From assembly GCA_964416985.1 (NCBI GenBank), contig CAYQFS010000001.1, forward strand, positions 19,413 through 83,412: a stretch of 64,000 nucleotides of DNA, written 5' to 3'. Under the pieces are notes generated by a model that worked only from the letters and a program-made list of their open reading frames with translations, did no database searches and was not told the origin of the DNA. The position numbers were made by a program, and so were the translations under genes. Below are positions 4,838 through 38,530 of this stretch, piece by piece (position 1 is the first letter of the stretch; each line of letters opens with the position of its first letter). Source of the DNA: an uncultured Candidatus Saccharibacteria bacterium. Its GTDB lineage: Bacteria > Patescibacteriota > Minisyncoccia > Phycocordibacterales > PALSA-1337.

Positions 4838-5096
4838 GTTTGTTTGTTTTATTATATTAAATACTTATTGTTATTATTAGTTCTGTGGATATGGGGGTAA
4901 GTTCTTTTTGTCTTTATTCTCAGGCCTCTTTTGGAATTTGTTGTTGTGAATAACTTTTTAAAACTTTTAATAACTTTTTACCTAAGCAGCTCTTTTTAAA
5001 TTTTATCCCAAGTTTTCCTAAACCCACCAACAGCTTGTTCCCAGACTTTTCCCTCTAATCTCAGCAACTTTTCAACAGTTTTATCCACAGAACTTA
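4838..5096. promoter_or_regulatory. oriC-like DnaA-box cluster and AT-rich stretch between dnaA and dnaN
   Basis: Perfect TTATCCACA at 5081-5089; 8/9 boxes at 4884-4892 (rc ATATCCACA) and 4945-4953 (rc TTATTCACA); 7/9 at 5003-5011; AT-rich 4838-4880. Confidence 0.6.
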
Positions 5097-7774: not shown

Positions 7775-7789
7775 GTTTTTCGCTAGATT

Positions 7790-10192: not shown

Positions 10193-10194
10193 AA

Positions 10195-11208: not shown

Positions 11209-11261
11209 TCCCCCTATTTTACCACGATATTTCATTATTCTGACAAAGAGATTTCCTCAGT

Positions 11262-11687
11262 TTATTCTTGTTTTGCCTGCTCTTCTCGAGAGATTCTCAC
11301 ACCATTTTGGTTTGGAGGCACCCTTTTTACTCGAGGAGGCGTAACACCTGGCTTATTTTTGTTAGGAAAAACCTTTAATCCTGTCTTATCTTCAACCCTA
11401 CTCAATATTAAAATTGCAACCATTGCGGCAATTATTGTAGGCAATTCCTGAACAGCTGGAAAAAGCTCCGCTATAGTTGAGATAATAGCCGGCACAAATC
11501 TTCTCCAATTCACAATTCCTAATCCAAGTTTCCAAAAAACCACACCCATTATCGCCCAAAAGATCCATCCTACAATATCTCCCGCGAGTGGTATGAGTGT
11601 CAGGACATCAGCGATGAAAGCGAGAAAAATCAAAAAGACACCCATTCGTATACTTATCCTGTATTTGGGTTCCTGCTTTTCTTCCAT
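11262..11687 (-). CDS. small polytopic membrane protein
   Basis: 141 aa, 3-4 predicted TM helices, follows VirB4-like gene. Confidence 0.45.
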   Translation of the reverse strand: MEEKQEPKYRISIRMGVFLIFLAFIADVLTLIPLAGDIVGWIFWAIMGVVFWKLGLGIVNWRRFVPAIISTIAELFPAVQELPTIIAAMVAILILSRVEDKTGLKVFPNKNKPGVTPPRVKRVPPNQNGVRISREEQAKQE

Positions 11688-11693
11688 ACCCCT

Positions 11694-13523
11694 CTATTTT
11701 ACCATGCTTGCTTGGCCGCTGGTTTCGAGATCTTGTTTTGCCTGCTTGATTGCAAGAACCTGAGCTGGATTTGTGGTGATGATCTGGTCCTCTGTGTATG
11801 ACGCAACAATCTTGAGGGCGACGTGCTTTAGACCGACGAAGAATATTCCCTCCCCAACATCTGACTCGAGAAGAAGATATTTTTCCTCATCAGTGAGGTT
11901 GAATGTTCTCTGGATATTGTCGATCGAAGATGGAGATTGTTTTAGAAGAATTTGAATTGAAGAGTTTGTGATAATCGGCAGTCCATATGGTGACTTGAGG
12001 AAATCGTCAACATCCTGGGTAATTGTTGCAAGACCAAGATAATATTTTCTTCCTCGTTTTGCCAAACCAAGTAGGAATGAAGCCGTATCTTCTGATTTCA
12101 TCATCCACCATGCCTCGTCGATCACGAGCAGTCGTTTCTTGAGCTGTTTTCGGATAGCGTTCCATATATAGTGTGTGACGATATACATTGCCACCGGCTT
12201 GAGCTCGTCTTCCATGTCTCGAAGCGAGAAAACTACGAATTTTTTGTTGATATCGACGTTTGAAGGGCGATTAATGAAGCCTGACCACGTTCCTTTTGTG
12301 TATTTTGTAAGACGTTCCACGAGGGAATCAGCTCCCTGCATCCCGGCAAGTACAAGTTCGAAATCCGAAAGAAGTGGTGGCTCAACATTCCTAAAGTCGG
12401 ATTCGGGAGTGATGTCCTTCAGGGCGTATGTTTCGGTTATAGCTCGGTCAATGATTGCATCTTCTTCCTGTGTAAGTCCTCCAAGCATAATTCGGAAAAG
12501 TCCAACGAGGTTAATGATGTTTGAGCGGAGAATATCAGCTGCACTCTCATCTTCACGGGGGATTGGAAGGTCAAAAGGGTTTATGTGATGCTCTGAGTTG
12601 AGGGAAATGTTGAAGTACTTCCCTCCTGTTGCTTCGGCCATGTATTCATATTCTTTTTCTGGGTCAATGACGATGACATCTGTATCAAACATTAGGGTTC
12701 TAAGAATTTCGAGCTTTGTGCAGTATGATTTTCCGGCTCCGGCCTTTGCAAATGTCACAGAGTTGTAATTTTCGAGCAGGAATCGATCAAAAAGAACAAG
12801 TGAAGAGTTGTGGCGATTGATTCCGTAGAGAATTCCTTTGTCAGACGTAAGATCAAACGAGGTAAATGGGAAAAGTGATGAAAGTGGAGAGGAATTGAGC
12901 TTTGAATGAACTGCTAGTTCGTCATTTGCAATAGGGAGAACGCTTCGGTAGCCACTCTCCTGTTGGAAAAGGGCAGGCTTTAGATACACAAGCTTTGATT
13001 CAAGGATTGATTTGATTTCTGACTCAGTCTTGTCGAGCTCGGCGCTTGAGTCACCATATATAGTAATGTAGACGCCAACATCAAATATTTTCTCCTGAGC
13101 TTGCATGAGATTGTCCCGAAGGGCTTCGAGGTCCTGGTAAGCAGTATCGAGCATTGGATCACGGACAAGACCCTTGTCTTCCCTCTGTGAAATTTGACTT
13201 TGAACCTCAGCTACTTTCTTCTGGAAGTGTCGAAGGATCTTTGCGGTGTCTACTGGATGAATGAAAATAGAAATATTAAAAATTTTGTCGAGGTTTACGA
13301 TTGGAGAGAACCAGCTTTCACTCAAAAATCGAGGATATGAGATGACAAAGAAGGTTCGAGCCACCTTTTCTCCGAGGTTCAATTCTTTTGGGCTGATTTT
13401 CAAAGCCGAAGGAGCAATGACATCCTTGAGTTCAAGGACGCCTGCCTCATAAATCTCCTGAGGCATGAGCGATGTCACTGGAGAAACCTCTTTTTTGCCT
13501 AGTAATTTTCCAAAAAATGACAT
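11694..13523 (-). CDS. VirB4/TrbE/CagE-family T4SS ATPase
   Basis: 609 aa; N-terminal DVIAPSALKISPKELNLGEKVARTFFVISYPRFL...GW-like VirB4 motif; Walker A AKAGAGKSY; Walker B LLVIDEAWWMM (DEAW). Confidence 0.85.
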   Translation of the reverse strand: MSFFGKLLGKKEVSPVTSLMPQEIYEAGVLELKDVIAPSALKISPKELNLGEKVARTFFVISYPRFLSESWFSPIVNLDKIFNISIFIHPVDTAKILRHFQKKVAEVQSQISQREDKGLVRDPMLDTAYQDLEALRDNLMQAQEKIFDVGVYITIYGDSSAELDKTESEIKSILESKLVYLKPALFQQESGYRSVLPIANDELAVHSKLNSSPLSSLFPFTSFDLTSDKGILYGINRHNSSLVLFDRFLLENYNSVTFAKAGAGKSYCTKLEILRTLMFDTDVIVIDPEKEYEYMAEATGGKYFNISLNSEHHINPFDLPIPREDESAADILRSNIINLVGLFRIMLGGLTQEEDAIIDRAITETYALKDITPESDFRNVEPPLLSDFELVLAGMQGADSLVERLTKYTKGTWSGFINRPSNVDINKKFVVFSLRDMEDELKPVAMYIVTHYIWNAIRKQLKKRLLVIDEAWWMMKSEDTASFLLGLAKRGRKYYLGLATITQDVDDFLKSPYGLPIITNSSIQILLKQSPSSIDNIQRTFNLTDEEKYLLLESDVGEGIFFVGLKHVALKIVASYTEDQIITTNPAQVLAIKQAKQDLETSGQASMVK

Positions 13524-13524
13524 A

Positions 13525-14157
13525 TTAATTTATTTGAATAGGTTTTTCTGACTCCCCAGGATTAAATATCTTGTAGTACAATTCTACCACCTCCTCCGTA
13601 CCAAGTTCAGCCACCCTCACTCCACAACGCACAAGTCCTTGCTCGACAACCCCCACCCTTTGCTCGAGCTGACTTCTGTACTCGGCAAATTTTTCATTTT
13701 CAATGATTCGGCTCTCGTCTTTTTTATTGACGAGATTGCTAATTGGGTTTTTACTTGCAGTCATTGCTGGAGGAGTATATGGCACAATAATGAAGAAACT
13801 TTTTGTCATGATATTTGAATTCTCGACGAATGTCTTAATGAATTCAATGTATTCCCTTGTCTGAATCTTCATAAGTTCAGTCATTTGTTCTTTGTAACGT
13901 TCCTCAAGAAGGGCTATGTATGGCCGTATATCAAGTCTTTTTGATTGAACAAATATCTGAACAGAAAAATCAAGAGAATTTAGAAAATTTTGGAACTGGT
14001 AGATGATTGAGTTTTGTTCATCGGCAGATTTGAGGGCAAAGTTCAATGAAGAAGCGAGAACAAGAGCCCTCATTGAGCCATCTTTGAGAATAACAATTCC
14101 ATCACGAATTTCCCTTATCGGTACAAAGTCCTGAGTTGTTTTTGAACTTGTTGCCAT
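13525..14157 (-). CDS. T4SS-associated hypothetical protein upstream of VirB4
   Basis: 210 aa soluble; PIREIRDGIVILKDGSMRALVLASSLNFALKSADEQ motif resembles N-terminal region of Gram-positive-type T4SS proteins; 2-nt gap to VirB4. Confidence 0.4.
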   Translation of the reverse strand: MATSSKTTQDFVPIREIRDGIVILKDGSMRALVLASSLNFALKSADEQNSIIYQFQNFLNSLDFSVQIFVQSKRLDIRPYIALLEERYKEQMTELMKIQTREYIEFIKTFVENSNIMTKSFFIIVPYTPPAMTASKNPISNLVNKKDESRIIENEKFAEYRSQLEQRVGVVEQGLVRCGVRVAELGTEEVVELYYKIFNPGESEKPIQIN

Positions 14158-14159
14158 AA

Positions 14160-14585
14160 TTATCTTTGGTTTTTATTTGTGTACATGCTCTCCTTTATGT
14201 CGAGACTCCACGTGAGGTCCTTGAGTTTGCTATCAGAAATCTTTGGGACCATGATTGATGCGTACTGTTTTGCCTCCTGCTCCGGTGTCACCACCTTTTC
14301 TTTTTCCGCTTTCTTCCATATGTAGAGTTTGCTGGAGAAAAAATACTTGAAGGCTGCTTCCATTACAAAAATAAACGGTTTGTTGTTTATTTTGTAGAAT
14401 GCGAGAGCTGCTGACAATGTCATTACAATAACAATTGGTATAAATGACAGCACGATCGAGTCCAAAAGCCTATATACAGCAAATGATAGACCTGCGCCTC
14501 CCGCAAGATAAATGAACTGCTTGAGGGTCAAGGGTCCAAATATCTTGTCTTCAACTTCGATGAACTGTGGGACTTGAAAACGCAT
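14160..14585 (-). CDS. small 2-TM protein (VirB3-like position)
   Basis: 141 aa, two TM helices, encoded immediately upstream of the VirB4 pair as VirB3 homologues are. Confidence 0.35.
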   Translation of the reverse strand: MRFQVPQFIEVEDKIFGPLTLKQFIYLAGGAGLSFAVYRLLDSIVLSFIPIVIVMTLSAALAFYKINNKPFIFVMEAAFKYFFSSKLYIWKKAEKEKVVTPEQEAKQYASIMVPKISDSKLKDLTWSLDIKESMYTNKNQR

Positions 14586-14600
14586 GTGTTCATTATAGCA

Positions 14601-15320
14601 TTATTCAATCGGCTCCCGATAAGGATCCACCGAGGTCTTCCCCGCTGGCTGTACCGGAGGCTTTGGGGAAGTTGGTGCTGGGGGTGTTTGGGGATTTGGT
14701 GGTATTGCAATTGGCCCAGGGCTTTGAGGTTTTGGTGCATTTGGTGCAGCTATTTCATTTGCACTTGAGACTGGATTTGCAAGGAGGTGGTCGACGATAG
14801 AAACCCTTGGTGTTGTTGGTGGATTTTCAATTCCATCAAGTATCTGGGCCTTATTTAGACTTGAATTGTTGTATTGAGGAGAAGTTGAAACAGGTTTATC
14901 CTTAACAATCTCAAAGTTCCCAGCTTTTTCGAGGGGGGTGAGAGGGCGGCTTGGAGGTATAGGCACTGTATTTTGCTCCAAAGTAATTTCTTCCTGTACT
15001 TTTCTAATTGATTCTCGAAGCGGCATAAAAATCTCTTCGTTTATATCTTTAACAATTTTTTCAGAAATTTCCTTGTCAATCTCGAGGTCTCTAGCTACTG
15101 TATCAATAAATTTGACTGATGGTAGTTTTCCTATAAGTACCATTCGGGTATCTACTTCGAGCTGCCCTATTTGGTCAAGGAGTAAATTATAACGCGCACC
15201 AATGCTCTCTAATTTCGAGTATACACTCGAAGATTTTATTGCCTCAAGTATTTCTTTTGGGATTGTTGTTTCGGTTGGTTTCATTTTTTTATTTTGTCCA
15301 TCTATCTCTATTTCGACCAT
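14601..15320 (-). CDS. proline-rich hypothetical protein
   Basis: 239 aa; C-terminus PQSPGPIAIPPNPQTPPAPTSPKPPVQP low-complexity. Confidence 0.45.
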   Translation of the reverse strand: MVEIEIDGQNKKMKPTETTIPKEILEAIKSSSVYSKLESIGARYNLLLDQIGQLEVDTRMVLIGKLPSVKFIDTVARDLEIDKEISEKIVKDINEEIFMPLRESIRKVQEEITLEQNTVPIPPSRPLTPLEKAGNFEIVKDKPVSTSPQYNNSSLNKAQILDGIENPPTTPRVSIVDHLLANPVSSANEIAAPNAPKPQSPGPIAIPPNPQTPPAPTSPKPPVQPAGKTSVDPYREPIE

Positions 15321-17232
15321 CGTTCATATATCCGTAAGCCTTGTGCTCTGTCGTCGGAGGTAGGTTGCTGATGCGGTTACCAATAGCCCTTCTGGTTGGT
15401 GCGTCAATCAGGTCTTCCATTTCTTTGAGTTGTGCCGGTGTCATGTAATCGATAACATCATTATTCTGAAGGTGGGTTGGATCAACCTTCGACAATTCCT
15501 TACCCGAAAGATTCTTCATATGCTTCTCGATGACTGTCGGTTGTCCAGAACTGAATACTAGGGATAGTCCTTCCTTTCTCGCTGTTTTAAACTTTTCCTT
15601 ATCTATTTCTGAGAGAGCATCGCCGTCAACTAAGCCTTCTGCTTGCTTAGAAGAAAGCGTAGCAGCAAATTGCGTGTTCGTAAGAGTTTTTAGAGGAACA
15701 TCCTCGAGTTCTTTCTTGGTCATTTTTCCTACAGCATCATAATAAGTCTTGAGTTGCTCAGGTGTAGTAGGTAAGTTATTGAGAATTGGTTTAAGGGCCT
15801 CTGTTCTTGATCGTTCTCTCTGTACTCCTGAAATGACTCTCGCGCGATCCTTATCCTCCCTCTCAACATCACCAAAACTCTGTTTGCCACCATATTTTGA
15901 TTTTTCGACACTCGTTAACCCTCCTCTTACTGCTTGGCTAATGCCTAGGTTTCTTAACACAGTTGTAGCAGCTCTTCCCGTTTTGCTTCCTTGTGCGGCT
16001 GCAGCCATATTGTCGAACCCTTTTCCTGCTAGTTTACCAAGTCGTCCAGCAGTATTTCTTCCAACCACTCCCCCTACCTTACCCCTCACCCAATCCTTTG
16101 CTACGTTTGCCATTCCTGCTCCGTGGCCCCCGAGCTGAAGTGCGGCAACAAGAGGGACATTTATAAAGACAAATGCAATAATGAATTGAAAAATAAGTCC
16201 TGCATCAGCAACGACCACCGCACCAATTGTTGAACCAGCCTTTGCTGCTGCAAGTTGTGCAGTGTCGAGAGCGTCAAAGAATCCTCCATTGCTTAGGAAT
16301 TTGAGAGCCACATACATGAAGAAAAGGTACGCAGGCATGAAAACAAGTTGGGGCACAAAATAATCCATGAACTTGCTCGTCATTTTTTGGTCAACTTTTG
16401 GGAAGATCATCCCTACAAAATACAGTGGAGAGAATCCCATGATGAGAAGGAGAATGACAATACGAATAATGAAGGCGAACCCTGCAAACAAGAAGCTAAG
16501 AGCTGCTGTGAGCATGAGTATCGAGCCTCCAATAGTTGAGACTGCGACTAGAAATGTTCCATTTGCAGTAGCGAGGATTCCTCCCTTGTTATATACCTTA
16601 GGTATTTTGAGGCTTTGCTGAAAGACGTCAGAGATACCTCCTTGTTTGAATGAATTTGTTAAAACCGTACCAATATCCCCTTTGGATAGATCTACATTTT
16701 GAGAATTAGGAGCGATTGCCCTGTAGAATTGGAGAGAAACGAGATTCGAAGCGTCAATAAGAATACGAGTGAAGAAAAGGCTAAAGTTAATGAGTATTCC
16801 AGCGAAAAATATCTTAACGACAAGAGATCCAAATTGAGGACCCTTTGTTCCAAGGATTGTGTTAATTGAGGCATATATGAGAGCAAAGATAATGAAGATG
16901 CTCGAAATGTTTCGTATGACAATCCACGTCTGTTCAATTGCCGGAGTTGCTTCGTAGAGTGCCTTTATATTAAGTGTGAGAACTATCGAAGCGTTAAGGA
17001 TAATTCCGGCAAGAGAAATGGCGTATGACATGAACTGGAGCACCCAGTTTCCGAGTTGGGAGAAAAGACTATCAAAAATTGATATAGTAGCACATTGAGC
17101 AAGACTATCTTGACTGAATATGAGCCACCACGAACAATCAGCTGCCGCTTGGGCAACATGAGGAATACTAGCAACTCCTCCCACCAGGAGGACAAGTGTT
17201 ATCGATAGGATTGTTGCTAATTTTCTGTTCAT
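15289..17232 (-). CDS. polytopic membrane protein, VirB6/TrbL-like
   Basis: 647 aa; signal/TM then >=6 TM helices, Gly-rich segment, ~280-aa hydrophilic C-terminal tail; architecture typical of VirB6/TrbL. Confidence 0.5.
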   Translation of the reverse strand: MNRKLATILSITLVLLVGGVASIPHVAQAAADCSWWLIFSQDSLAQCATISIFDSLFSQLGNWVLQFMSYAISLAGIILNASIVLTLNIKALYEATPAIEQTWIVIRNISSIFIIFALIYASINTILGTKGPQFGSLVVKIFFAGILINFSLFFTRILIDASNLVSLQFYRAIAPNSQNVDLSKGDIGTVLTNSFKQGGISDVFQQSLKIPKVYNKGGILATANGTFLVAVSTIGGSILMLTAALSFLFAGFAFIIRIVILLLIMGFSPLYFVGMIFPKVDQKMTSKFMDYFVPQLVFMPAYLFFMYVALKFLSNGGFFDALDTAQLAAAKAGSTIGAVVVADAGLIFQFIIAFVFINVPLVAALQLGGHGAGMANVAKDWVRGKVGGVVGRNTAGRLGKLAGKGFDNMAAAAQGSKTGRAATTVLRNLGISQAVRGGLTSVEKSKYGGKQSFGDVEREDKDRARVISGVQRERSRTEALKPILNNLPTTPEQLKTYYDAVGKMTKKELEDVPLKTLTNTQFAATLSSKQAEGLVDGDALSEIDKEKFKTARKEGLSLVFSSGQPTVIEKHMKNLSGKELSKVDPTHLQNNDVIDYMTPAQLKEMEDLIDAPTRRAIGNRISNLPPTTEHKAYGYMNDGRNRDRWTK

Positions 17233-17238
17233 GTAATG

Positions 17239-18846
17239 CTAATAGTAGAAAGTTGAAAACAATGTGCACTGCTGCAGCTTTCTCTGGGCATCTGCTTTTG
17301 CGCTATCCATGTCCTCTTTTACTTTATCCAATGCTTTCTGAGATTCTGAAACCTTGAGTGGAGATATAAGCGACTGACTCTGAAGCAATCTGCTATATTT
17401 TTCACTTGGCGCCCGAAGGTCGTTCACTGTTTTTGCAACGGTGGTGCTTGCTTGAATATCTGTAAGAGTCTTGAGTTGTGTAGTAGCATCCGCTGTTTCT
17501 GCAAGGAGGGTGTTTGCAACTGGTGTGATTCTTGTAGCGACTTCTCGAGCAATATCATCGAGTCCAGATTGAGCCATGGCTTTTCGGTATCCATCAGATG
17601 AGAAATCTATCAATTTCTGGTTGTAACATGCTGTCGCTGTGTCGTATGCTTGTTTTGCACTGACAACTATCGCGAGGGCAGCATCTTTATTCTGCTTGTA
17701 TTGTTTTGCGTTATCGATGTTCGTTTGGAGGTTAGGAAGCATTTGCTCAGTTATCTTTCCTGCCCCCTCAGGACTTTCTTGTATTATTTGGTTGATGTAT
17801 GCATTTGAATCTCCAGCACCGCCTCCACTGATTGCCCCAAGTCCTTGAGAAAGAACCTGTGTTACGAGTTGCGCAAAGAGGGCGTTTACAATTTCGTTAA
17901 GTTCATCCGCTAGTTCAAGTTGACGAATCGGACTTCCAAGGTTTGATTCAAGGGCTCCTGCGATAACGGAGCCAGGTGTTTGGACTTCACATTTTTCTTC
18001 TGCCACATAACCTTCCCCCGATCCTTCGTATGATCTTTCTGGTCCATTATATGTTCCTTCTCCGGATCCCTCACTTGGTCTTTCTTCTGAATTTTCATTG
18101 CCGGTTTTGGTACATTTTCTCCACGAGAGAAAACCTTTTCCTTGATTTAGCTCCTCTCTTCTCTGGATCTGGACGTTTGCTACTCGAAGAGAGAGTTCTG
18201 TATCAGCTTGGATCCATGCCCCGTACACATTGTTTTGTGGTTCTGTGGTCATAGAAACGAAAGCAGGCCAGCCACCCTGTCTGAAATCTCCAGCAGTGAA
18301 GCCGTTAATACTTGAATTTTTAACAGCATTTGTAGTGTTTGTAATGATAGTTCCTAAAGTACAAGCATACCTTTGTCCACTATTCGGATGATATTTAAAA
18401 GCGAGCGCAATTCGGAGATCGATACTGAATGGAGAACAGAGATTTGTGAGTGGTCCTCCGTACTGAGAGAGAAAACGCCCAGTTTCCTGGTCTGCAAGAT
18501 CGAGAAAGAAGGAGCTTGGATTTGTTACAAATGAAGGACTTCCTTGAAAGCCAGAATTGATCCAGTTGACAACACTCTGGGTTATTTGTCGGACGATTTG
18601 TTTTGCAAACATTCCCGCAATTCCGTCGAGGACAAATTCCTTGAGATTGTCAGAATACGCATTAAATGCGAGCTGTGTCGTGTTTGTTGCGATGATGATT
18701 TGCTGAACCAAAGACGCTCCGACTTCTACAACTGCATATTGTGCTTCGACTTTATGTGGTATTGAGAGTGACAATGAAAGGAGTGACCCGATCAGGAGTG
18801 TTACTACAAGAAGCGAACTAATTATTTTTGTAATCTTTTGTTTCAT
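17239..18846 (-). CDS. secreted hypothetical protein
   Basis: 535 aa; N-terminal signal/TM MKQKITKIISSLLVVTLLIGSLLSL; no catalytic motif recognised. Confidence 0.45.
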   Translation of the reverse strand: MKQKITKIISSLLVVTLLIGSLLSLSLSIPHKVEAQYAVVEVGASLVQQIIIATNTTQLAFNAYSDNLKEFVLDGIAGMFAKQIVRQITQSVVNWINSGFQGSPSFVTNPSSFFLDLADQETGRFLSQYGGPLTNLCSPFSIDLRIALAFKYHPNSGQRYACTLGTIITNTTNAVKNSSINGFTAGDFRQGGWPAFVSMTTEPQNNVYGAWIQADTELSLRVANVQIQRREELNQGKGFLSWRKCTKTGNENSEERPSEGSGEGTYNGPERSYEGSGEGYVAEEKCEVQTPGSVIAGALESNLGSPIRQLELADELNEIVNALFAQLVTQVLSQGLGAISGGGAGDSNAYINQIIQESPEGAGKITEQMLPNLQTNIDNAKQYKQNKDAALAIVVSAKQAYDTATACYNQKLIDFSSDGYRKAMAQSGLDDIAREVATRITPVANTLLAETADATTQLKTLTDIQASTTVAKTVNDLRAPSEKYSRLLQSQSLISPLKVSESQKALDKVKEDMDSAKADAQRKLQQCTLFSTFYY

Positions 18847-18847
18847 A

Positions 18848-19825
18848 TTATTGGTGTGTCATAAAAAATATACCCCCTTCATTTTGTTGATATTGAATTC
18901 CCATCAAACTGATTTTTTGCCTGACAGATAGGAAAGCGTCAAAAAGTTTTCGAGCCCCTTCGAGGTATTGGCTTGTTGCTTGCAATCCAAGGACCGGGTC
19001 AGCTCCCGATTTTCTAAATGATTGAGCCACAAACAAGGAGATCTTCATCCCATTTATTAAATCGAGGTGAGTCTGAGAAAGTGACGCAGGGGTTTCAATT
19101 GTAGTAAGTCCGTTCACAATATTTTGGTATGTGGTGATGATGGGGTCGAGTTCTTTGAGAATATCCAAATCTTCTTTCTCGAGGGCTTCCTTAGCAATTA
19201 CAGCCTCATTTCTTCCATTTATTGGATACTTGAGAAAAAGATTTCCAACATCATTCCCATATTGTCTGATAGATGTGGCGCTATCGTCTTTGCGAGTTTT
19301 TACTGAACTTAAGTTGTAAAGTTTTGGTGCACTAAGGACAATTCCACTTTTTGTGACAACCTGCTGCGCTACTTCTATCTGGCTCTGAGGATCCTGGGAA
19401 AGACCCGCTTGGCGGAGTTCCATGTAGCGGGCAAAAAAGTCTCTAGCAAGAAGGTCGGTCGGAGTGAGGTCTTCTGTGGGAGTTTTTGAAGATGAAGTTT
19501 CACTCATTTTGTCCTTGGGACCTTTGACGAGAGGGTTTCTTCCGGTAGTACTTTCCTTTCCGTCGGATGTGCCGTCACCATCAGTATCTGCTTTGTGTGG
19601 ATCAGTACCGAGGAGAACTTCTTCCCAGTCTCTGAGACCATCAGAATCGCTGTCGACGCTCTGTAGGTCGGGAGAAAGAGCTGGGGTTGAGGTCGAAACG
19701 AGGGGTGCTTCGTAGACTATGTTTTCATCCTGTTTGTTGCGATACTCTGCGACAAAAAATGCTCCACTGATAAGGGCAGCTGCGGCAAGAATCAAAACGA
19801 TATTTTTGAGGCTTGGGGACTTCAT
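18848..19825 (-). CDS. secreted protein with thrombospondin-type-3-like Ca-binding repeats (first gene of operon)
   Basis: N-terminal TM; DSDSDGLRDWEEVLLGTDPHKADTDGDGTSDGKE (DxDxDG repeats). Confidence 0.5.
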   Translation of the reverse strand: MKSPSLKNIVLILAAAALISGAFFVAEYRNKQDENIVYEAPLVSTSTPALSPDLQSVDSDSDGLRDWEEVLLGTDPHKADTDGDGTSDGKESTTGRNPLVKGPKDKMSETSSSKTPTEDLTPTDLLARDFFARYMELRQAGLSQDPQSQIEVAQQVVTKSGIVLSAPKLYNLSSVKTRKDDSATSIRQYGNDVGNLFLKYPINGRNEAVIAKEALEKEDLDILKELDPIITTYQNIVNGLTTIETPASLSQTHLDLINGMKISLFVAQSFRKSGADPVLGLQATSQYLEGARKLFDAFLSVRQKISLMGIQYQQNEGGIFFMTHQ

Positions 19826-19901
19826 TTATAATTTCGGGTAGTACTCGAAATGCTCCCCTAATTATAGCAAGATATGAAGCCTAATCCTACGTATTTTCGG
19901 C

Positions 19902-20747
19902 TTATTTCTGTGGAAAACAGACAATCTTCTTCCATTGTTCAAGAGAAAGCTCTTCCGCGCGCACCTGAGCCGGCCATTTTTCTTGTTCCCACAGGTTTTT
20001 GAGTACTTCTGGGGCCATTTTTTCCTTCAAATTGCCCATAAGTACCTTTCGTTTGTGAGAAAAGCCGGTTTTTACAAGGTCAAAGAAGTTTTTTTCATCA
20101 ATATTTGATTCGGTGAAGAAGTTTTTTGAGATATTTTCAATGAGAAGAACTGCGGAGTCGACGTTTGGCACAGGGCGGAAAAATTTTCGAGGGACTGACG
20201 TGATAAATTTTGGATTTCCATAAGCTTTGACTGAAATTGAAAGAATACTTTCCTTAGAATCGGTAATTCTTCTCGTCAGTTCCTTCTGAAGCATGACAAC
20301 AATCCGCATTGGTTGAATTTCTGATTCGAGAAATTTTCTCAAAAATTCCCCGCTGATGTAGTACGGGATATTTGCCACGATACTGTACTCCCCTTTTTTG
20401 AGACCAAGGATTGCTGGCTCAATTTCCAAAATATCCCCATGGATTAATTTCAATTTTCCTGTTTTGAGTTCTCGAGAGAACTTTTCAGAGAGAAATGGAA
20501 TGGCACGGTCGTCTTTTTCAATCGCAATGACCTGGGCTCCAGCCTCAAGAAGACCATGAGTGAGAGCTCCTTTTCCTGGACCAACTTCAACAACAACATC
20601 ATCACGAAGAATTCGCGCAGCATGGATCATGGCTCCGATTACGTGAGGTGCATGGAGAAAATTCTGCCCCAAAGATTTTTTCGCGACGAAATTATTTTTG
20701 GATTCAGTTGTGATTTCTTCTGATTCAGAAAATATCTCAGGTTCCAT
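19902..20747 (-). CDS. rsmA: 16S rRNA (adenine1518/1519-N6)-dimethyltransferase
   Basis: 281 aa; SAM motif VVEVGPGKGALT; KsgA family layout. Confidence 0.9.
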   Translation of the reverse strand: MEPEIFSESEEITTESKNNFVAKKSLGQNFLHAPHVIGAMIHAARILRDDVVVEVGPGKGALTHGLLEAGAQVIAIEKDDRAIPFLSEKFSRELKTGKLKLIHGDILEIEPAILGLKKGEYSIVANIPYYISGEFLRKFLESEIQPMRIVVMLQKELTRRITDSKESILSISVKAYGNPKFITSVPRKFFRPVPNVDSAVLLIENISKNFFTESNIDEKNFFDLVKTGFSHKRKVLMGNLKEKMAPEVLKNLWEQEKWPAQVRAEELSLEQWKKIVCFPQK

Positions 20748-32868: not shown

Positions 32869-32943
32869 GCGCCCGTAGTGAAATGGATATCATACCGGTC
32901 TTCGGAACCGTTGTTGGGGGTTCGAATCCCTCCGGGCGCACCA
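32869..32943 (+). tRNA. tRNA-Arg (anticodon TCG), CCA encoded
   Basis: Cloverleaf by hand: acceptor GCGCCCG/CGGGCGC, D-stem GTGA/TCAT, anticodon loop CTTCGGA, T-loop TTCGAAT; one mismatch at base of anticodon stem. Confidence 0.7.
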
Positions 32944-32944
32944 T

Positions 32945-33015
32945 GCGGGTATGGTTTAGTGGTAGAATGCGTCCTTGCCAAGGACGAGACGGGAGTTCGA
33001 TTCTCCCTACCCGCA
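32945..33015 (+). tRNA. tRNA-Gly (anticodon GCC)
   Basis: Acceptor GCGGGTA/TACCCGC, anticodon arm CGTCC-TTGCCAA-GGACG, T-loop TTCGATT; 71 nt. Confidence 0.85.
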
Positions 33016-33115
33016 CAGCGACACAATTGAGAGACATTCTGTGGAAAATTGTGGATAACTCTGTGGACAGTGTTTATAAGAGACAAAATATATGGCCTAT
33101 ATGCGTCTTTAATAT

Positions 33116-33502
33116 GTGTTTCACGTGAAAATACTAACTACTAAAGAAAGGGGAGATATTGGAGAAAAAATTGCTTCTGAATGGCTAAGTAACAAGGGTT
33201 TTCTTGTTATTGAAAGAAATTATAGGAAGAAGTGGGGAGAGATTGATATTGTAGCCGCCAAGGACAAAATCATTCATTTTATTGAGGTTAAGAGCGTATC
33301 TGGTGGGGGAGGTGGGGGATACAGACCAGAAGACAATGTCCATGAAATAAAGCAAAAACGTCTTAGAAGGACCATTCAGACCTTCCTTGCTGAAAGGAAA
33401 TACTCCTCTGAAGCTGTGTTTCAGTTTCATATCATGGCCATTTACATGGATGATGAGACGAGAAAGGCTCGGGTGGAATTCGTGGAGAATATTATTCTCT
33501 AA
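33116..33502 (+). CDS. YraN/UPF0102-family endonuclease-like protein
   Basis: 128 aa; GEKIASEWLSNKGFLVIERNYR...GEIDIVA...IHFIEVK pattern. Confidence 0.75.
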   Translation: MFHVKILTTKERGDIGEKIASEWLSNKGFLVIERNYRKKWGEIDIVAAKDKIIHFIEVKSVSGGGGGGYRPEDNVHEIKQKRLRRTIQTFLAERKYSSEAVFQFHIMAIYMDDETRKARVEFVENIIL

Positions 33503-33549
33503 GAAATTATGGAGTTTTGAAGGTCTGTATGCTAGTATGGTGAAGTTAT

Positions 33550-33625
33550 CGGAGCGTGGTGTAACGGCTAACATTCCTGTTTTGGGAACAGGCGACTCCG
33601 GGTTCGAATCCCGGCGCTCCGACCA
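33550..33625 (+). tRNA. tRNA-Pro (anticodon TGG), CCA encoded
   Basis: Acceptor CGGAGCG/CGCTCCG, anticodon arm CCTGT-TTTGGGA-ACAGG, T-loop TTCGAAT. Confidence 0.85.
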
Positions 33626-33645
33626 TTTTTGAGTTTTTTAACAAA

Positions 33646-35008
33646 TATGAAGATAAACAAATCACCTTGGATACATCAGCTCGACGAAACAAGGAAGCCC
33701 GTTTCTCTGACTCAGGACATCGATACTGATATCGCAATCGTTGGTGCAGGGATCGCTGGTGTTTCAACGGCTTTTTTCATTCTCAAGTATACAAATAAGA
33801 AAGTTGTTATTATTGAAAAGGGTAAATTGGCTCACGGTGCAACTGGTCATAACGCAGGGCAGGTTGTGGCATGTTTTGAGAGACCTTTGGAGGATATGGT
33901 TAAAGAATTTGGTTTTGAAAAAGTTAAAAAAGCTCTCCACGATCTCCATTCCGGCTGGATATTGATTGATGAGATGTATCATGATGCGCGCCTCAAGATT
34001 CTTTTCTCAAGAATAGATGGAGCTCACGGATTATCAGATCTTCATCAAGTTATTTCTGCTTTGAGCGATCTTGAAATTGAAGTTCTTTCAGGTCTGCACA
34101 AGGATGATTTTCTAATACATGAGAATGCTCCTTTTATCAATTCAATACCGAATAATCTGAAGCATCTCTATAGAACTGTTCCGCACAAGGAAATTTTGGA
34201 AAGGCTTGAGACTGATGATACTGAATTTCAGGCCGTGATGGTTGACCGAAGAGCGTGTATGAACTCAGCTCTCTTCTGTCAGGAGATAGTCTCATATCTC
34301 CTTAAAAAATACGAGACACGTTTTTCAATATACGAAAACACAACCATAAAAAAAGTTATTTTGAGAAAGACTCATGCGCTGCTTGATGCGGATAAACATA
34401 CTATCGGAGCAGAAAGGGTAGTTCTCTGTACGAATGGGTTCGAGAATTTTGATATTTTTAATGAAGACGGTCTTGCTGTTGATAAGAAATTTCATCACTT
34501 AATAGAAGGGAAAGTAGGATACATGTCGGGGTATCTTGAAAATCTAAATAAAAAAGCGGCAGCGATTTCGTATTTTACAAGTGATTTTGATCCATCAAGC
34601 AGTGATCCATACTACTATCTCACCCGAAGACCTCATGAGTTAGGTGACAAAAAACATAATCTTGTCTGTGTCGGTGGCCCAGAACTTGGTATTGATGATA
34701 GGGGAGAGTATTTATACGATTATGACTATCCTGAAAAAATGCACCAAGATATTGATGCTTTCATCAAGAAAGTTTATGACACCGATCCAGAAAAAAAGAT
34801 CGACTACCAATTCACCTGGCATGGCCTCATGGGCTACACACCGAACCGTGTCCGCCTCATTGGGGAAGAGCCTAAGAACCGCGTGCTCCTTTACAACCTT
34901 GGCTGTAATGGCATCGGCATTATTCCTTCTGTTTTTGGCGGAAGGAAGATCTCGAGGATTATAGGAGGGGAGAATATGAAAGAATCCATCTTTGACCCGA
35001 AGAGCTAG
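33646..35008 (+). CDS. FAD-dependent oxidoreductase (DAO family)
   Basis: Rossmann dinucleotide motif DIAIVGAGIAGVSTA; start moved to ATG 33646 (ORF-track TTG 33629 abuts tRNA-Pro). Confidence 0.75.
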
Positions 35009-35051
35009 CAAAAAATATTATTTCTGGTAGTATGGTTCTACAACTGAATAT

Positions 35052-35125
35052 GCGGGACTAGTTTATCGGTAAAATAACAGTTTTCCAAACTGTGGTGGGG
35101 GGTTCGACTCCCCCGTCCCGCACCA
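35052..35125 (+). tRNA. tRNA-Gly (anticodon TCC), CCA encoded
   Basis: Acceptor GCGGGAC/GTCCCGC, anticodon arm ACAGT-TTTCCAA-ACTGT, T-loop TTCGACT. Confidence 0.8.
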
Positions 35126-35673
35126 TGAAAAAGCTTCTTGTCTCACTCGGGATTCTTGTAGGTATCATTGCAGTAGCTTGTCTCGTTTCTTTTCTCACAG
35201 AAAATCGCTCAGTAAAAAACAATATTCCTTCAGTAGTTGAAAATACAAATTCCTTTTCTGATCCTATGAATGGTACATACACCATCGATGGTGAAAAAAT
35301 TACATTGAAAAATGGTGTCGCCGCAAACGCTCGACTTTTTGGAATTCCGACAAGCGGAGATATAAGTCAAGATGGCCTACATGATTCAATTTTCTTTATT
35401 TCGATTAATAATGGGGGATCGGGAACATTTTTCTATGTTGTGGCAGCTTTGCAAAAAGATGGATCTTACATTGGGACAAATGCTATTTTTCTCGGTGATA
35501 GAATTTCTCCTCAGAACATTACTATTTCAGATGGGGAAGCGGCTGTAAATTATGTAATACGAAGAGATATTGATCCGATGACGGCAGCTCCTTCGGTGGG
35601 GGTGACGAAGTATCTCATTATCAAAGACGGTGAATTAGTAGAATATAACAGGATTGAGGAGGATTTGAAATAA
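35125..35673 (+). CDS. membrane-anchored/secreted hypothetical protein
   Basis: Start ATG overlaps last base of tRNA-Gly; MKKLLVSLGILVGIIAVACLVSF signal/TM. Confidence 0.5.
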   Translation: MKKLLVSLGILVGIIAVACLVSFLTENRSVKNNIPSVVENTNSFSDPMNGTYTIDGEKITLKNGVAANARLFGIPTSGDISQDGLHDSIFFISINNGGSGTFFYVVAALQKDGSYIGTNAIFLGDRISPQNITISDGEAAVNYVIRRDIDPMTAAPSVGVTKYLIIKDGELVEYNRIEEDLK

Positions 35674-35676
35674 TAA

Positions 35677-35706
35677 CAAAAAATCACCCTACGGTGACGT
35701 TTTTGT
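35677..35706. terminator. bidirectional rho-independent terminator (A-run, CACCCTAcGGTGA hairpin, T-run)
   Basis: aaaaaatCACCctacGGTGAcgtttttgtt between convergent genes. Confidence 0.6.
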
Positions 35707-35708
35707 TG

Positions 35709-36464
35709 CTAGTCATGATTCCAAATATAATCGAACATTATTCTAAAGGTCTCAGAGATGTATTTACTTTCTATTACGATTGTTAAAATCGTTTCCTTAA
35801 AATTTGTGATAGACACTTTATCCCCATAAATAATTATCTGAGCCGGAATATTTAATTTTTCCGTGGGAACCTTTTTTCTAGTGATGAGATATTTTTCATC
35901 TTCCTCTATCGGGGTTGCGACTGACTGAATATCTGAATGAGGGGCAATAGCCTTTGTCCGGATATTTTGTGCAACTTGTTTTTCTATCTGTTCCTTTATT
36001 AAATGAAGAATTTCCTGGCGACCCTCTTTTATCGGAGAGCTCATTACTAAAATATCCTGACCTATTTCGAGGATTTCACTGTGTACTTTTTCTACACCCC
36101 CTACTCCTTCGTAGAACTGAATATTTGGTTTACCAAACAATGCATTAAATTCTGATGATAAACTACCGAATATCGTATTGAAATCCGAAAAGGCATGATT
36201 GAGACTTTGTTTCTTCACCTCGACCATGTTCTTGATATTTCTAGGGTGTTTAGGCAAGAAAAGGGCTATTTTCCCGATATCCTCCCGTTTTTCTATTAGA
36301 TCTAGGTCTATAAGTTGGTCGATAATCTTATAGGTAAGTGCTCTGCCAATTCCTGTTTTTGATGAAATAGACTTTGCTGAAGAGAAGCCATTGCTTAAAA
36401 GATGGACATATATTTTTGCTTGATCAAGGCTCAGTCCACAGTCTACTAGTATTTTTTCATTCAT
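35709..36464 (-). CDS. TrmB-family HTH transcriptional regulator
   Basis: 251 aa; N-terminal winged HTH LSLDQAKIYVHLLSNGFSSAKSISSKTGIGRALTYKIIDQLIDLDLIEK. Confidence 0.6.
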   Translation of the reverse strand: MNEKILVDCGLSLDQAKIYVHLLSNGFSSAKSISSKTGIGRALTYKIIDQLIDLDLIEKREDIGKIALFLPKHPRNIKNMVEVKKQSLNHAFSDFNTIFGSLSSEFNALFGKPNIQFYEGVGGVEKVHSEILEIGQDILVMSSPIKEGRQEILHLIKEQIEKQVAQNIRTKAIAPHSDIQSVATPIEEDEKYLITRKKVPTEKLNIPAQIIIYGDKVSITNFKETILTIVIESKYISETFRIMFDYIWNHD

Positions 36465-36563
36465 TTTGTTACAAGATTATGACAATAATAGGCTTATTTA
36501 ATAAGGATACTACAAAATTCGTTATATTACAAGGATTTATGTTGGTAGAAAAGGTACAATAGA

Positions 36564-36591
36564 TTGACAAATCTATTTAATATGCTATGAT
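36564..36591 (+). promoter_or_regulatory. consensus sigma70 promoter driving the GC-rich island operon
   Basis: TTGACA (36564-36569), 16-nt spacer, TATGAT (36586-36591); a second TTGACA at 36592. Confidence 0.5.
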
Positions 36592-36656
36592 TGACATCAG
36601 AACGATAGATATGGGATGCATAACGCACCGCTATTGTTGTCAGAAAGACTTGACCT

Positions 36657-36974
36657 ATGAAAATTCTTAACTCGTTTTCTCTCAACATGCTCCAAAACCT
36701 TGACGGTGAGGTCACTCACAAAGTGATCCCCCTTGAAGAGGCCAAGGAATGGGCCCGGGTTGGTGTCCTTGAATCCACCGTTGGTCATGCCGACACAGCT
36801 GCGATCTTTGGATCGCAACTAGACTTGGATGTTCCTGCGGTTCGGAGTACCATCTCTTTATCGAAAGGAGATATGGTACTGGTAGGTCAATACCGCGGAC
36901 CACGGTTGGCTGAGGGGGCGAAGACGCTTCCTGATGGAGCGGGTATTGTCTGGATCTTGCTTACGGTTAAGTAA
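36657..36974 (+). CDS. DUF1874 (STIV B116 / AcrIII-1 / Crn2-like) cyclic tetra-adenylate ring nuclease
   Basis: 105 aa; N-terminal LNSFSLNML, GH motif ESTVGHADTAAIFGSQLD, C-terminal RSTISLSKGDMVLVGQYRGPRLAEGAK (R..I.L..D..V.Q..RL.EG pattern), recalled from DUF1874/AcrIII-1 family members; 55-60% GC vs ~40% host. Confidence 0.65.
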   Translation: MKILNSFSLNMLQNLDGEVTHKVIPLEEAKEWARVGVLESTVGHADTAAIFGSQLDLDVPAVRSTISLSKGDMVLVGQYRGPRLAEGAKTLPDGAGIVWILLTVK

Positions 36975-37029
36975 GTGGGACAGGTCGAAAACCTGAACAA
37001 AAATTTCCTCTGCGCGTTGAGTGAACGCG

Positions 37030-37082
37030 CTGCTTCTCGGAATGTGTATTCCGACTGATGAGTCCGAAAGGACGAAAAGCAG
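37030..37082 (+). ncRNA. hammerhead self-cleaving ribozyme (type III, open helix III)
   Basis: Helix III CUGCUU/AAGCAG; cleavage UC at 37035-37036; helix I UCGGAAU-GUGU-AUUCCGA; core CUGAUGA; helix II GUCC-GAAA-GGAC; core GAAA; every conserved core nucleotide present. Confidence 0.75.
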
Positions 37083-37264
37083 AAGTTCTTTAAATACAAT
37101 TTGGCAGATGAAGTGTTTGAATGCAGATTTAAATATCTATCACACACTCCATCTGCTAAATGAGCTACATAAAAGCGACCTCAACGAGGAGTACAGACGA
37201 TTAAAACAGGGTTTATGAAAATAAACTTTGGTCGTCATGTTGCATCAATAGATGGGATTCAGTT

Positions 37265-37810
37265 ATGACAAATATTGTTGAAAAAATTCTCTCGGTAAGG
37301 GTGATGCTCGTGTCTGGTTTAATCATCGGAGTTCTCTGTGCCTTAACAGGTGCGTGGAATTATGTTGAACCAATGACCGGTATCGCAACCCTTGCGGTCG
37401 CAGGAGCTGTCTGGTTCCAGACCCGTAAGGCAGCCAAGGCTGTCTACGCCGATAACGGAGACGGTAGCTGGGTGGTCGCTCTCGAGGTTGGACGACCGGT
37501 GTCCGAAGCTGTCAAAAAACAGTTCGGGCAACTCGACTGTTTCATCAAGTGTGAGGAAATCATCAAGGGGCACACTCTGGTGCTTCCTGAACACTATGAA
37601 GCTCTGACGAAAGCAGTTTACGCTGCTGTCTGTCAGGGTCAGGGGAAGAATATTCACCTGATCATGTCGGGACCGATTGCCTTGTCAGTTTTGGTTGGAC
37701 AGCTCATCGGTCTTATGCACTTCCAGATCACGGTGTATCAATACACGCCGTCGTCAGGAACGTATGAGGCGATGCCAAGGCCGACTCGAGATTGGCTCGA
37801 GCATCGTTGA
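37265..37810 (+). CDS. 2-TM membrane protein with C-terminal Rossmann-like alpha/beta domain (candidate nucleotide-binding effector)
   Basis: 181 aa; TM1 VMLVSGLIIGVLCALTGAW, TM2 MTGIATLAVAGAVWF; beta-alpha-beta pattern SWVVALEV / NIHLIMSGPIALSVLVGQLIG / HFQITVYQY; GC ~55%. Confidence 0.5.
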   Translation: MTNIVEKILSVRVMLVSGLIIGVLCALTGAWNYVEPMTGIATLAVAGAVWFQTRKAAKAVYADNGDGSWVVALEVGRPVSEAVKKQFGQLDCFIKCEEIIKGHTLVLPEHYEALTKAVYAAVCQGQGKNIHLIMSGPIALSVLVGQLIGLMHFQITVYQYTPSSGTYEAMPRPTRDWLEHR

Positions 37811-38110
37811 AGGTTGCGAAGAGGGAATGGACATCAACATTCCCTCCCTTATCAGATTCAGCATCTTGGTATGATGAATCTGTAGGGGAAATAATGTTCT
37901 TTAGAATTTTATGAGATGGCCAGTTCCTGCTAGTGAGGAATTGGCAAAGGATCTACTCCGCAGCGTGATGAGCGATCATCAGCGTAAGGAGTGGTACAGA
38001 TCCATGTTCAAGGATTAGCCTACCCTTGAACACTTCATTGAGTCCACTGAGTGAAAGATTCTCGTGGGTTCATAGAGTAAGAGGAATTTTGAAAAAATAA
38101 AGGACACTTT

Positions 38111-38383
38111 ATGGAGGCAATGGTTTTAAGCATTCCTGCTAAGGGTGCTGAAATTCAGGAAATCAAAGGGGTTAAGTACCTCGTTGCTAGACTGGATGAG
38201 CAGAAAACCTGCATGGAGTATGCCGCCGAGCTAAGGAAAGGAAAACCTGTTGTGATTCCCGCATCAAAACGCGGACACTTAACAGGAATTCTAAAGAAGG
38301 AATCTATTTTCACCACGCATTCTACTGCCCCTGGTGGACAATGGGTAACCTTCGTTCCTTGCGAAAAGCGCGATTTCAAGTAG
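38111..38383 (+). CDS. hypothetical 90-aa protein, last gene of island
   Basis: ORF with no recognisable motif; GC-rich like neighbours. Confidence 0.35.
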   Translation: MEAMVLSIPAKGAEIQEIKGVKYLVARLDEQKTCMEYAAELRKGKPVVIPASKRGHLTGILKKESIFTTHSTAPGGQWVTFVPCEKRDFK

Positions 38384-38467
38384 TGACTGCCAAAGGATCA
38401 CTCTAACCTTTGAATTAGAAGAGTGTAGTTGTCACCGTACAAAAATGGTGAGATGGCTGCAGGCTAC

Positions 38468-38495
38468 CGTGCGAAAGTGCGGTTTTGTTTTGTCC
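38468..38495 (+). terminator. rho-independent terminator of island operon
   Basis: ccgtgcGAAAgtgcgg hairpin followed by ttttgttttg. Confidence 0.5.
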
Positions 38496-38502
38496 AAAAA
38501 CA

Positions 38503-38530
38503 AAAAACCACCCTAAGGTGGTCTTTTGTT
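38503..38530 (-). terminator. rho-independent terminator of hup (near-identical to 35677-35706 element)
   Basis: aaaaaacCACCctaaGGTGGtcttttgttt; on - strand hairpin followed by TTTTTTGTTTTTGG. Confidence 0.6.

Follow-up and report, generated by a model that had tools for sequence, protein, structure and literature searches.

The question raised by this locus is what a 181-residue bacterial membrane protein senses and what it does in response. The protein is encoded at positions 37265 to 37810 of a 64,000-nucleotide (nt) stretch of contig CAYQFS010000001.1 from an uncultured Candidatus Saccharibacteria bacterium, and this whole stretch is referred to below as the window. An earlier note, drawn up from the sequence alone, had proposed a membrane effector that is gated by cyclic oligoadenylate (cOA) and has its own off-switch. 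Our analysis shows that the protein consists of a two-helix membrane hairpin followed by one cytoplasmic SAVED lobe. Whether it is a signal-gated membrane effector of the transmembrane (TM)-SAVED kind, built from a minimal parts list, is in our judgment an even question. Its probable function is defence through membrane damage under the control of a signal, and its neighboring genes, from which alone a ligand can be read, point to cyclic tetra-adenylate (cA4) as the most likely one.

A small membrane protein with a single SAVED lobe

A single-sequence search recovered 63 homologues at E ≤ 1e-32 and a profile search recovered 111, each either annotated with PF18145 or without annotation, and we therefore regard the reading frame as a real gene and not a chance open reading frame (ORF). 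Nearly all of these homologues are 155 to 200 residues long. The soluble part of the protein matches the Pfam SAVED family (PF18145) over residues 64 to 168 with 36.4 bits, against a curated cutoff of 26.2, and all 39 aligned family members show the same match. NCBIfam NF033611 is matched with 50.3 bits (cutoff, 33), over profile positions 145 to 255 of 261 only. The best PADLOC models are SAVED4--SAVED (E = 5.4e-16) and SAVED4--SAVED_TM (E = 3.9e-15), the latter covered only at positions 158 to 274 of 278. The family profile also matches each lobe of the structure 9r8s separately (residues 39 to 104 and 195 to 232). This double match and the partial NCBIfam coverage indicate that the soluble part is one SAVED lobe and not a whole SAVED domain. 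The structural hallmark of SAVED, two fused CARF-like lobes that form a pseudo-dimer with one ligand pocket, is absent from the 181-residue protein, which is a SAVED protein by sequence only. Among 1.84 billion representative proteins the family makes up 99 clusters, nearly all of 100 to 200 residues, and the single-lobe form is the rule within this rare family.

An AlphaFold2 model based on the 39-sequence alignment (mean predicted local distance difference test score [pLDDT], 84.5) places N-terminal helices at residues 11 to 28 and 31 to 62, in agreement with hydropathy and with the two membrane helices claimed in the earlier note. The domain that follows comprises strand 68-74, helix 80-87, strand 92-95, helix 108-124, strand 129-134, helix 138-148, and strands 154-161 and 166-169, giving a beta-alpha-beta-alpha-beta-alpha-beta-beta topology. 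The alternating Rossmann-like ligand-binding domain that had been predicted is thus borne out, and it belongs to the CARF/SAVED superfamily. It is of the SAVED type, however, rather than CARF proper or SLOG as had been suggested, and represents one lobe of two. The stretch NIHLIMSGPIALSVLVGQLIG, which had been singled out for a glycine-rich loop after a hydrophobic strand, corresponds to strand 129-134, the loop S135-G136-P137, and helix 138-148; the loop does follow the strand, but it reads S-G-P and is not glycine rich. It is invariant across the 39-sequence alignment, and SGP is found in 111 of 112 family proteins. Residues P171, W177, and H180 in the C-terminal tail are likewise invariant in that alignment, and the mean pLDDT of the last two 10-residue blocks of the protein is 54 and then 36. 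When the model was compared with known structures by Foldseek, as the earlier note had advised, the top match was the full-length 3TM-SAVED filament 9wq3, with an alignment spanning the TM region and the lobe (E = 1e-3).

The hydropathy profile (Kyte-Doolittle, 15-residue mean) shows two segments, at about residues 10 to 30 (peak, 2.76) and 36 to 51 (peak, 1.70). The loop between the helices carries the motif W31-x-x-x-E35-P36, here WNYVEP (residues 31 to 36; window positions 37355 to 37372). Of 112 family proteins, 106 carry W...[ED]P, among them shorter members in which the second helix alone is retained. Helix 2 is followed by the sequence QTRKAAK, whose basic residues point to an N-in/C-in arrangement with both ends of the protein in the cytoplasm. 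No match to Saf-2TM was found in the window protein at E ≤ 1 in Pfam.

Proposed mode of action

With a single lobe, each subunit supplies only half of a ligand pocket and has to pair with another. Pairing could be side by side, in the manner of CARF dimers, or in head-to-tail stacks like those of Csx15, CalpL, and 3TM-SAVED. We propose that SAVED lobes would be bridged by a second messenger of the symmetric adenylate type, cA4 being the likeliest, and that this ligand-driven pairing or stacking would rearrange or cluster the membrane hairpins to form a pore or lesion. Collapse of the membrane potential and a stop in growth would then abort the infection. The protein encoded upstream in the same operon may degrade the messenger and so reset the system, and a hammerhead ribozyme lying between the two genes may cut the bicistronic RNA into nuclease and effector mRNAs with different stabilities and doses.

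The directly upstream gene (Table 1) encodes a member of a ring nuclease family, as the earlier note had recognized. Its product matches Pfam STIV_B116-like/DUF1874 (33.5 bits; cutoff, 26; E = 4.8e-8), PADLOC Csx16 (E = 7.7e-9), phrog_5063 (E = 7.5e-13), and PDB entry 2J6B (AFV3-109; E = 7.2e-6), and in the last alignment its sequence VGHADTA is paired with IGHQATA, giving the motif G-H-x-x-T-A. Degradation of cA4 by Csx16 has been shown (PMC12409355), and cA4 is specifically degraded by Csx16, Csx20, and Csx3 and bound by Csx15 (PMC12409355, PMC13148439). Judged by these similarities, cA4 degradation is a candidate activity of the upstream protein.

We compared the neighborhoods of 48 nonredundant loci. 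The carriers are mostly metagenome-assembled genomes (MAGs) of the candidate phyla radiation (CPR)/Patescibacteria, with Uhrbacteria, Magasanikbacteria, Saccharibacteria, and Moranbacteria labels, and the SAVED proteins fall into two clades, one with two TM helices (2TM; about 180 residues) and one with a single helix (1TM; about 155 residues). Co-occurrence with cA4 ring nuclease families, a trait of type III ancillary proteins, is seen in the window and in 14 of the 48 loci overall: a gene of this kind lies upstream in eight loci as a Csx15/20-like gene, in four as Csx3, and in two as a DUF1874/Csx16-like gene, always in the 2TM clade. The co-occurrence check proposed in the earlier note therefore holds for ring nucleases in general but not for DUF1874 itself, which is found beside the SAVED gene only in this genome's own contigs and, as a remote relative, in locus L001. 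Homologues were not found in transporter operons, a context that would have spoken for a different function; instead, the 2TM clade repeatedly follows families that bind or cleave cA4.

Two groups of known proteins appear to work most like the window protein, although it belongs to neither. Cap14/3TM-SAVED, a CBASS effector (9om7, 9wq3), combines a full two-lobe SAVED domain (about 260 residues) with three predicted helices and is encoded next to a CD-NTase, whereas the window protein has one lobe of about 110 residues, two helices joined by the W-x-x-x-E-P loop, and neighbors from cA4 ring nuclease families, with no CD-NTase found. Cam1, Csx23, and Cap1 (CARF-TM) are similarly small, have TM helices at the N terminus and a cA4 sensor on the cytoplasmic side, and oligomerize and depolarize the membrane; Csx23, for example, is a cA4-binding tetramer, and these are type III membrane effectors (PMC11229360, PMC11014256, bioRxiv 10.1101/2025.11.13.688252). 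They differ in using other sensor folds (CARF or the novel Csx23 domain) and in lying inside type III loci. Within the SAVED4 group, which supplied the best PADLOC models, CalpL (SAVED4--SAVED_LON_TM) binds cA4 and aligns over the S-x-P loop region, but in the present family just one relative was found near type III genes. The viral SAVED ring nuclease AcrIII-2/Crn5 (9r8s) and Csx15 are soluble nucleases or sponges, AcrIII-2 being two-lobed, and no histidine was seen at the equivalent loop of the window protein. In the literature that we searched, TM-SAVED proteins are tied to cA4 signaling by bioinformatic prediction only (PMC9704534), and Cap14 from CBASS is the sole biochemically characterized TM-SAVED protein. 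A design of about 180 residues with one SAVED lobe would show how a half pocket assembles on its ligand and relays this event to a membrane hairpin.

The missing signal source and the radical SAM neighbor

Several observations weigh against the effector reading. No CRISPR array is present in the 64-kb window or in 16 related neighborhoods, and neither Cas10 nor a CD-NTase is among the Pfam and PADLOC matches listed for the 43 other window proteins, which are housekeeping matches such as DnaA, PGK, NusA, type IV pilus proteins, and UvrD. The matches listed for 148 neighboring ORFs from 16 loci likewise include no Cas10, CD-NTase, or mCpol (both listings give the top 25 families, so that weak matches could be hidden). 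Thus, among the matches listed for the window and these 148 ORFs, the CD-NTase that accompanies the SAVED gene in Cap14-type CBASS is not seen, and with no array and no cas families among the matches listed, a type III CRISPR-cas locus was not found at or beside the window SAVED gene. CPR bacteria are, moreover, reported to be nearly devoid of CRISPR-Cas (PMC4742961). Family members are 60 to 70% identical across Uhrbacteria, Magasanikbacteria, and Saccharibacteria, which is high for a fast-evolving defence effector, and the gene most commonly adjacent to the SAVED gene encodes a radical SAM enzyme that a cA4 model does not explain. Finally, the DUF1874-like gene partners the same TrmBL2-like regulator in locus L033, which has no SAVED gene within 8 kb, and it is therefore not demonstrably the private off-switch of the effector; what stands of that proposal is the presence of a ring nuclease family gene upstream. 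The idea of cOA gating fares similarly, being supported by the ring nuclease neighbors but not by any cyclase in the window or the related neighborhoods. The radical SAM partner is the main unexplained fact and the signal source the main gap: the source is not in the locus and may be an enzyme of an unrecognized family or one encoded at another place in the genome. For the CPR hosts, this leaves two options, that an otherwise unrecognized source of cyclic nucleotides is kept in reduced genomes or that the sensor reads something else.

Candidate sources within the related loci found no support. Ten small unknown ORFs were considered as mCpol or other cyclases and gave no Pfam match at E ≤ 0.1, with PADLOC returning only Csx15/20-like and weak Csx16 matches. 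Large proteins of 600 to 980 residues, considered as divergent Cas10, matched only a GNAT domain and no NCBIfam family and are absent from the window. In many loci, a gene for such a large protein adjoins either the SAVED cassette or the TrmB-like gene (for example, L004 4295-6154, L010 4396-7101, L008 7774-10710, and L018 9718-12075); some have a GNAT acetyltransferase domain behind a long unannotated N-terminal region, and the L018 protein has no Pfam match. In L018, a block of the SAVED gene with genes for 183- and 785-residue proteins forms a perfect inverted duplication (8001-12075 and 12176-16250), which is either real or an assembly artefact.

Among the 48 loci, adjacency to a type III locus was seen for one distant homologue, a 158-residue protein in a Sulfurimonas MAG (L031), with some 200 nt between the end of its gene and a 38-repeat CRISPR array; beyond the array come Cas2-Cas1, Csx1 (CARF), and a RAMP fusion protein. 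The array repeat is GTTTCAATCCCCTTAGAATCGGGTCATTTTGTATT, and the regions 10678-13300 and 13415-20477 of that locus hold the array together with Cas2-Cas1-Cas2, a Macro-DarT pair, WCX, Csx1, and the large RAMP fusion; the SAVED homologue overlaps at its start with a DUF4145 gene. The surroundings of a Persephonella homologue look like a mobile element. A phage origin of the family is not supported, with a relative in only one of 2.9 million IMG/VR viral contigs and no PHROGs viral family match for the SAVED protein.

In 19 of the 48 loci, or 12 of the 26 that have sequence on both sides, the SAVED gene has a radical SAM gene as its immediate same-strand neighbor, at a distance of about 10 to 350 nt. 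In 1TM loci this neighbor lies upstream, in 2TM loci downstream. The enzymes are 266 to 344 residues long (examples are L001 10552-11586, L026 2574-3602, L021 8891-9691, and L066 7170-7952). Their nearest named relatives in NCBIfam, all far below the curated cutoffs, are NrdG2 (E = 7e-13), viperin (E = 1.6e-6), and MoaA (E = 7e-4), and the PADLOC pVip model matches eight of them (best E = 6e-11). In L026, whose SAVED protein is 91% identical to that of the window, a radical SAM gene follows downstream. In the window, tblastn with two radical SAM proteins detected neither the gene nor a remnant, and thus no degraded copy downstream of the SAVED gene.

Alternative explanations

This recurrent neighbor is the obvious lead on the signal, and interest in the family would rise sharply if it proved to be the signal source. 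The SAVED protein could then be the sensor or effector half of a two-gene module whose radical SAM enzyme makes, alters, or destroys the SAVED ligand or modifies the C-terminal tail, and the window would contain a variant from which the radical SAM cassette was lost or to which it was never added. Such a module would account for the adjacency in both clades and in L026, the closest relative with a different downstream gene, and for a tail that is invariant yet modeled with low confidence; it also fits the roles of the closest named enzymes, which are to act on nucleotides or to activate a partner protein. The window SAVED gene, however, is intact and conserved with no radical SAM gene or remnant near it, the ring nuclease neighbors point to cA4, and radical SAM enzymes are not known to make ligands for SAVED or CARF domains, so that we consider this module unlikely, if far from fanciful. 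Quite unlikely, too, is the proposal that the radical SAM enzyme and the TM-half-SAVED protein form an undescribed signaling module, in which this enzyme, and not Cas10 or a CD-NTase, would make or process a nucleotide-derived signal, the ring nuclease family proteins would be interchangeable signal-clearing accessories, and the genes would travel as hammerhead-punctuated cassettes beside a TrmBL2-like regulator in CPR bacteria. The absence of a cyclase nearby would also suit an anti-defence or damping device, in which the protein would act as a membrane-anchored cA4 sponge or ring nuclease and quench the signal together with the upstream DUF1874-like enzyme. There are precedents, in that the SAVED domain of CalpL is itself a ring nuclease (PMC11417357) and in Csx15, a small protein of the CARF superfamily, cA4 is sequestered between stacked dimers or slowly broken down there (PMC13148439). 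A sponge has no obvious use for a membrane anchor, though, and the loop after strand 1 reads G-R-P, with no histidine where Csx15 and AcrIII-2 have their catalytic one (the positional comparison being approximate). Together with the near absence of viral relatives, this makes a quenching role distinctly improbable.

Two further readings are less probable again. The combination of a TM protein and a nucleotide sensor outside CRISPR loci fits the pattern of Panoptes, which pairs a minimal cyclase with TM effectors, including cA3-controlled CARF-TM effectors (PMC13577387). By this inverse logic, a constitutive nucleotide would keep the effector closed, and its loss, for example to a phage sponge or nuclease, would open it; but the small neighboring ORFs yielded neither mCpol nor any other cyclase, and a ring nuclease made from the same operon would trigger the effector of its own cell, and we rate such a guard as very improbable. 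Under the other reading, the protein would have a housekeeping role in CPR bacteria and no part in defence, as a ligand-regulated cation channel with a pore like the one in the mitochondrial calcium uniporter. In its favor, the loop motif W-(D/N)-x-x-E-P, shared by the 1TM forms, does resemble the WDxxEP selectivity filter of the uniporter, and the family is well conserved across CPR lineages, with a member in the same chromosomal neighborhood in the window and in L001. The statistics are weak, however (PDB E values of 0.07 to 0.3; hhalign probability, 32%), and the aspartate position is variable (D in 48 proteins, N in 32, others in 26). Among 39 members, Pfam MCU is touched by 4 (best E = 0.044), and SLATT_1 (13 members; best E = 0.012) and DUF4191 (19 members) are matched just as weakly. 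The uniporter-like pore is thus a weak lead. The family is also rare, and its neighbors are ring nucleases, toxin-antitoxin genes, and variable cassettes, all of which leaves a housekeeping channel hardly probable. The signal-gated effector of the TM-SAVED kind therefore remains the explanation that we favor.

Hammerhead ribozymes between the cassettes

The spacer between the ring nuclease family gene and the SAVED gene contains a predicted hammerhead ribozyme (Table 1). It scores 43.5 bits against Rfam RF00008 (E = 1.2e-7), below the gathering score of 48.5, and its catalytic core CUGAUGA...GAAA is intact and invariant in six related copies. Across these six copies, 97% of the cells of the 17 base pairs are paired, 11 pairs show compensatory changes, and none of 500 shuffles was as good, so that covariation supports the three stems. 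A covariance model built from them (R1) gives the window hammerhead 83.6 bits and finds 22 nonredundant copies distributed over 10 loci; each lies on the cassette strand, and the genes are usually preceded by one. All 22 fall below the Rfam gathering threshold. There is one copy in the window, and there are three in L026 and three in L033, the latter despite its lack of a SAVED gene. Eight loci scanned with Rfam had none, so that hammerheads are not a universal trait of these loci, and no second hammerhead was found by R1, with filters off, after the window SAVED gene (37811 to 38110).

Both spacers flanking the SAVED gene have unusually strong predicted RNA structure. The region from 36975 to 37270 folds with -90.8 kcal/mol (z = -5.15), and the 290-nt leader including the ribozyme aligns over its full length with L026 1571-1902, conserved although the upstream gene differs; the long hairpin of the leader is conserved in L026 as well. 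A 65-residue ORF at 37021 to 37218 (+) spans the hammerhead, and its peptide ...CIPTDESERTK... is the translated ribozyme core. In L026, a pipeline-called gene for a 432-residue protein (3900-5198) also starts across a hammerhead. Both calls are probably wrong, at least as far as their starts are concerned.

Clusters of same-strand hammerheads that separate single genes or short blocks of variable identity are known from prophages, where ardA lies just downstream of one of them (Perreault et al. 2011, PMC3088659). The present arrays, by contrast, are found on CPR chromosomes, with a TrmBL2-like regulator beside them, and the cassettes consist of SAVED, ring nuclease family, radical SAM, and unknown genes. 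Hammerhead-punctuated cassette arrays of this kind offer a tractable case for the effect of clustered bacterial hammerheads on operon expression.

Regulator and operon organization

The gene divergent from the cassette operon encodes a 251-residue protein that matches Pfam TrmB (E = 2.4e-9). Its AlphaFold2 model (pLDDT, 87.6) finds TrmBL2 as the best Foldseek match (5bqt/5bpd; E = 1e-13), with a C-terminal domain resembling PLD/Zucchini folds. Since the model is a full-length TrmBL2 look-alike, the protein is not a cyclase; a role as cA4 sensor is ruled out likewise, given the PLD-like C-terminal domain and the occurrence of the family without SAVED. It serves as a landmark and is a possible regulator of the variable region. 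The TrmB-like gene is widespread in CPR bacteria and lies 1 to 3 kb upstream in most of the related loci. In L033 it is present with no SAVED gene within 8 kb, and its divergent neighbor encodes a 113-residue homologue of the window DUF1874-like protein (hhalign, 92.5%). The regulator and a divergent gene for a DUF1874/Csx16-like protein of about 105 to 114 residues are a conserved pair in CPR genomes, seen in the window and also in L001 (6833-7606 with 7962-8306) and L033 (8001-8768 with 7473-7814). As the pair occurs with or without a SAVED cassette, the ring nuclease family gene can be retained with no effector nearby, and since L033 keeps the pair, the two genes look like an anchor to which the SAVED gene was added downstream.

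Promoter and terminator candidates bracket the ring nuclease-like gene, the SAVED gene, and a 90-residue ORF (Table 1), which makes it likely that the three form one transcription unit. The 90-residue ORF gave no match in Pfam, PADLOC, NCBIfam, or PHROGs.

Table 1. Features of the SAVED locus in the window and hammerhead copies in related loci
Feature	Position	Strand	Remarks
TrmBL2-like DNA-binding protein, 251 residues	35709..36464	-	Winged helix-turn-helix, long coiled coil, PLD-like C-terminal domain; divergent from cassette operon
Promoter candidate, sigma-70-like	36564..36591	+	TTGACA, 16-nt spacer, TATGAT, extended -10 TG; 11 of 12 consensus matches; pattern match only
DUF1874/Csx16-family protein, candidate cA4 ring nuclease, 105 residues	36657..36974	+	Directly upstream of SAVED gene
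Type III hammerhead self-cleaving ribozyme (predicted)	37028..37085	+	Between two genes; cut predicted near 37036/37037 after ...CUUC
Structured 5' leader of SAVED cassette	37086..37264	+	Long hairpin at about 37099-37164
TM + single SAVED lobe gene	37265..37810	+	ATG start, 181 residues, two TM helices
Membrane hairpin	37295..37417	+	Helix 1, residues 11-28; short outward loop; helix 2, residues 31-51 (hydropathy, AlphaFold2)
Single SAVED lobe	37454..37771	+	Residues 64-169; loops G76-R77-P78 and S135-G136-P137 invariant
C-terminal tail AMPRPTRDWLEHR	37772..37807	+	Strongly conserved, low model confidence
Structured spacer after SAVED gene	37811..38110	+	RNA fold -108.4 kcal/mol, z = -5.9
ORF, 90 residues, possible last cassette of operon	38111..38383	+	Found only in near-identical contig L023
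Two terminator-like hairpins with T tracts, likely operon end	38466..38522	+	Pattern scan
Hammerhead copies	L026 1631, 2455, 4039; L025 1280, 2222; L014 11198	Cassette strand	R1 model
Hammerhead copies	L036 1651, 2589, 4231; L039 2096, 4351, 5954; L055 9035, 10244, 11044, 11396	Cassette strand	R1 model
Hammerhead copies	L066 7026; L037 2089; L033 7318, 6876, 6319 (-)	Cassette strand	R1 model

The G+C content is about 0.31 to 0.38 in the region from 35550 to 36750 and climbs to 0.48 to 0.54 over the two cassette genes. Four tRNA genes (Arg-TCG, Gly-GCC, Pro-TGG, and Gly-TCC) lie at window positions 32869 to 35125, 2 to 4 kb upstream of the locus.

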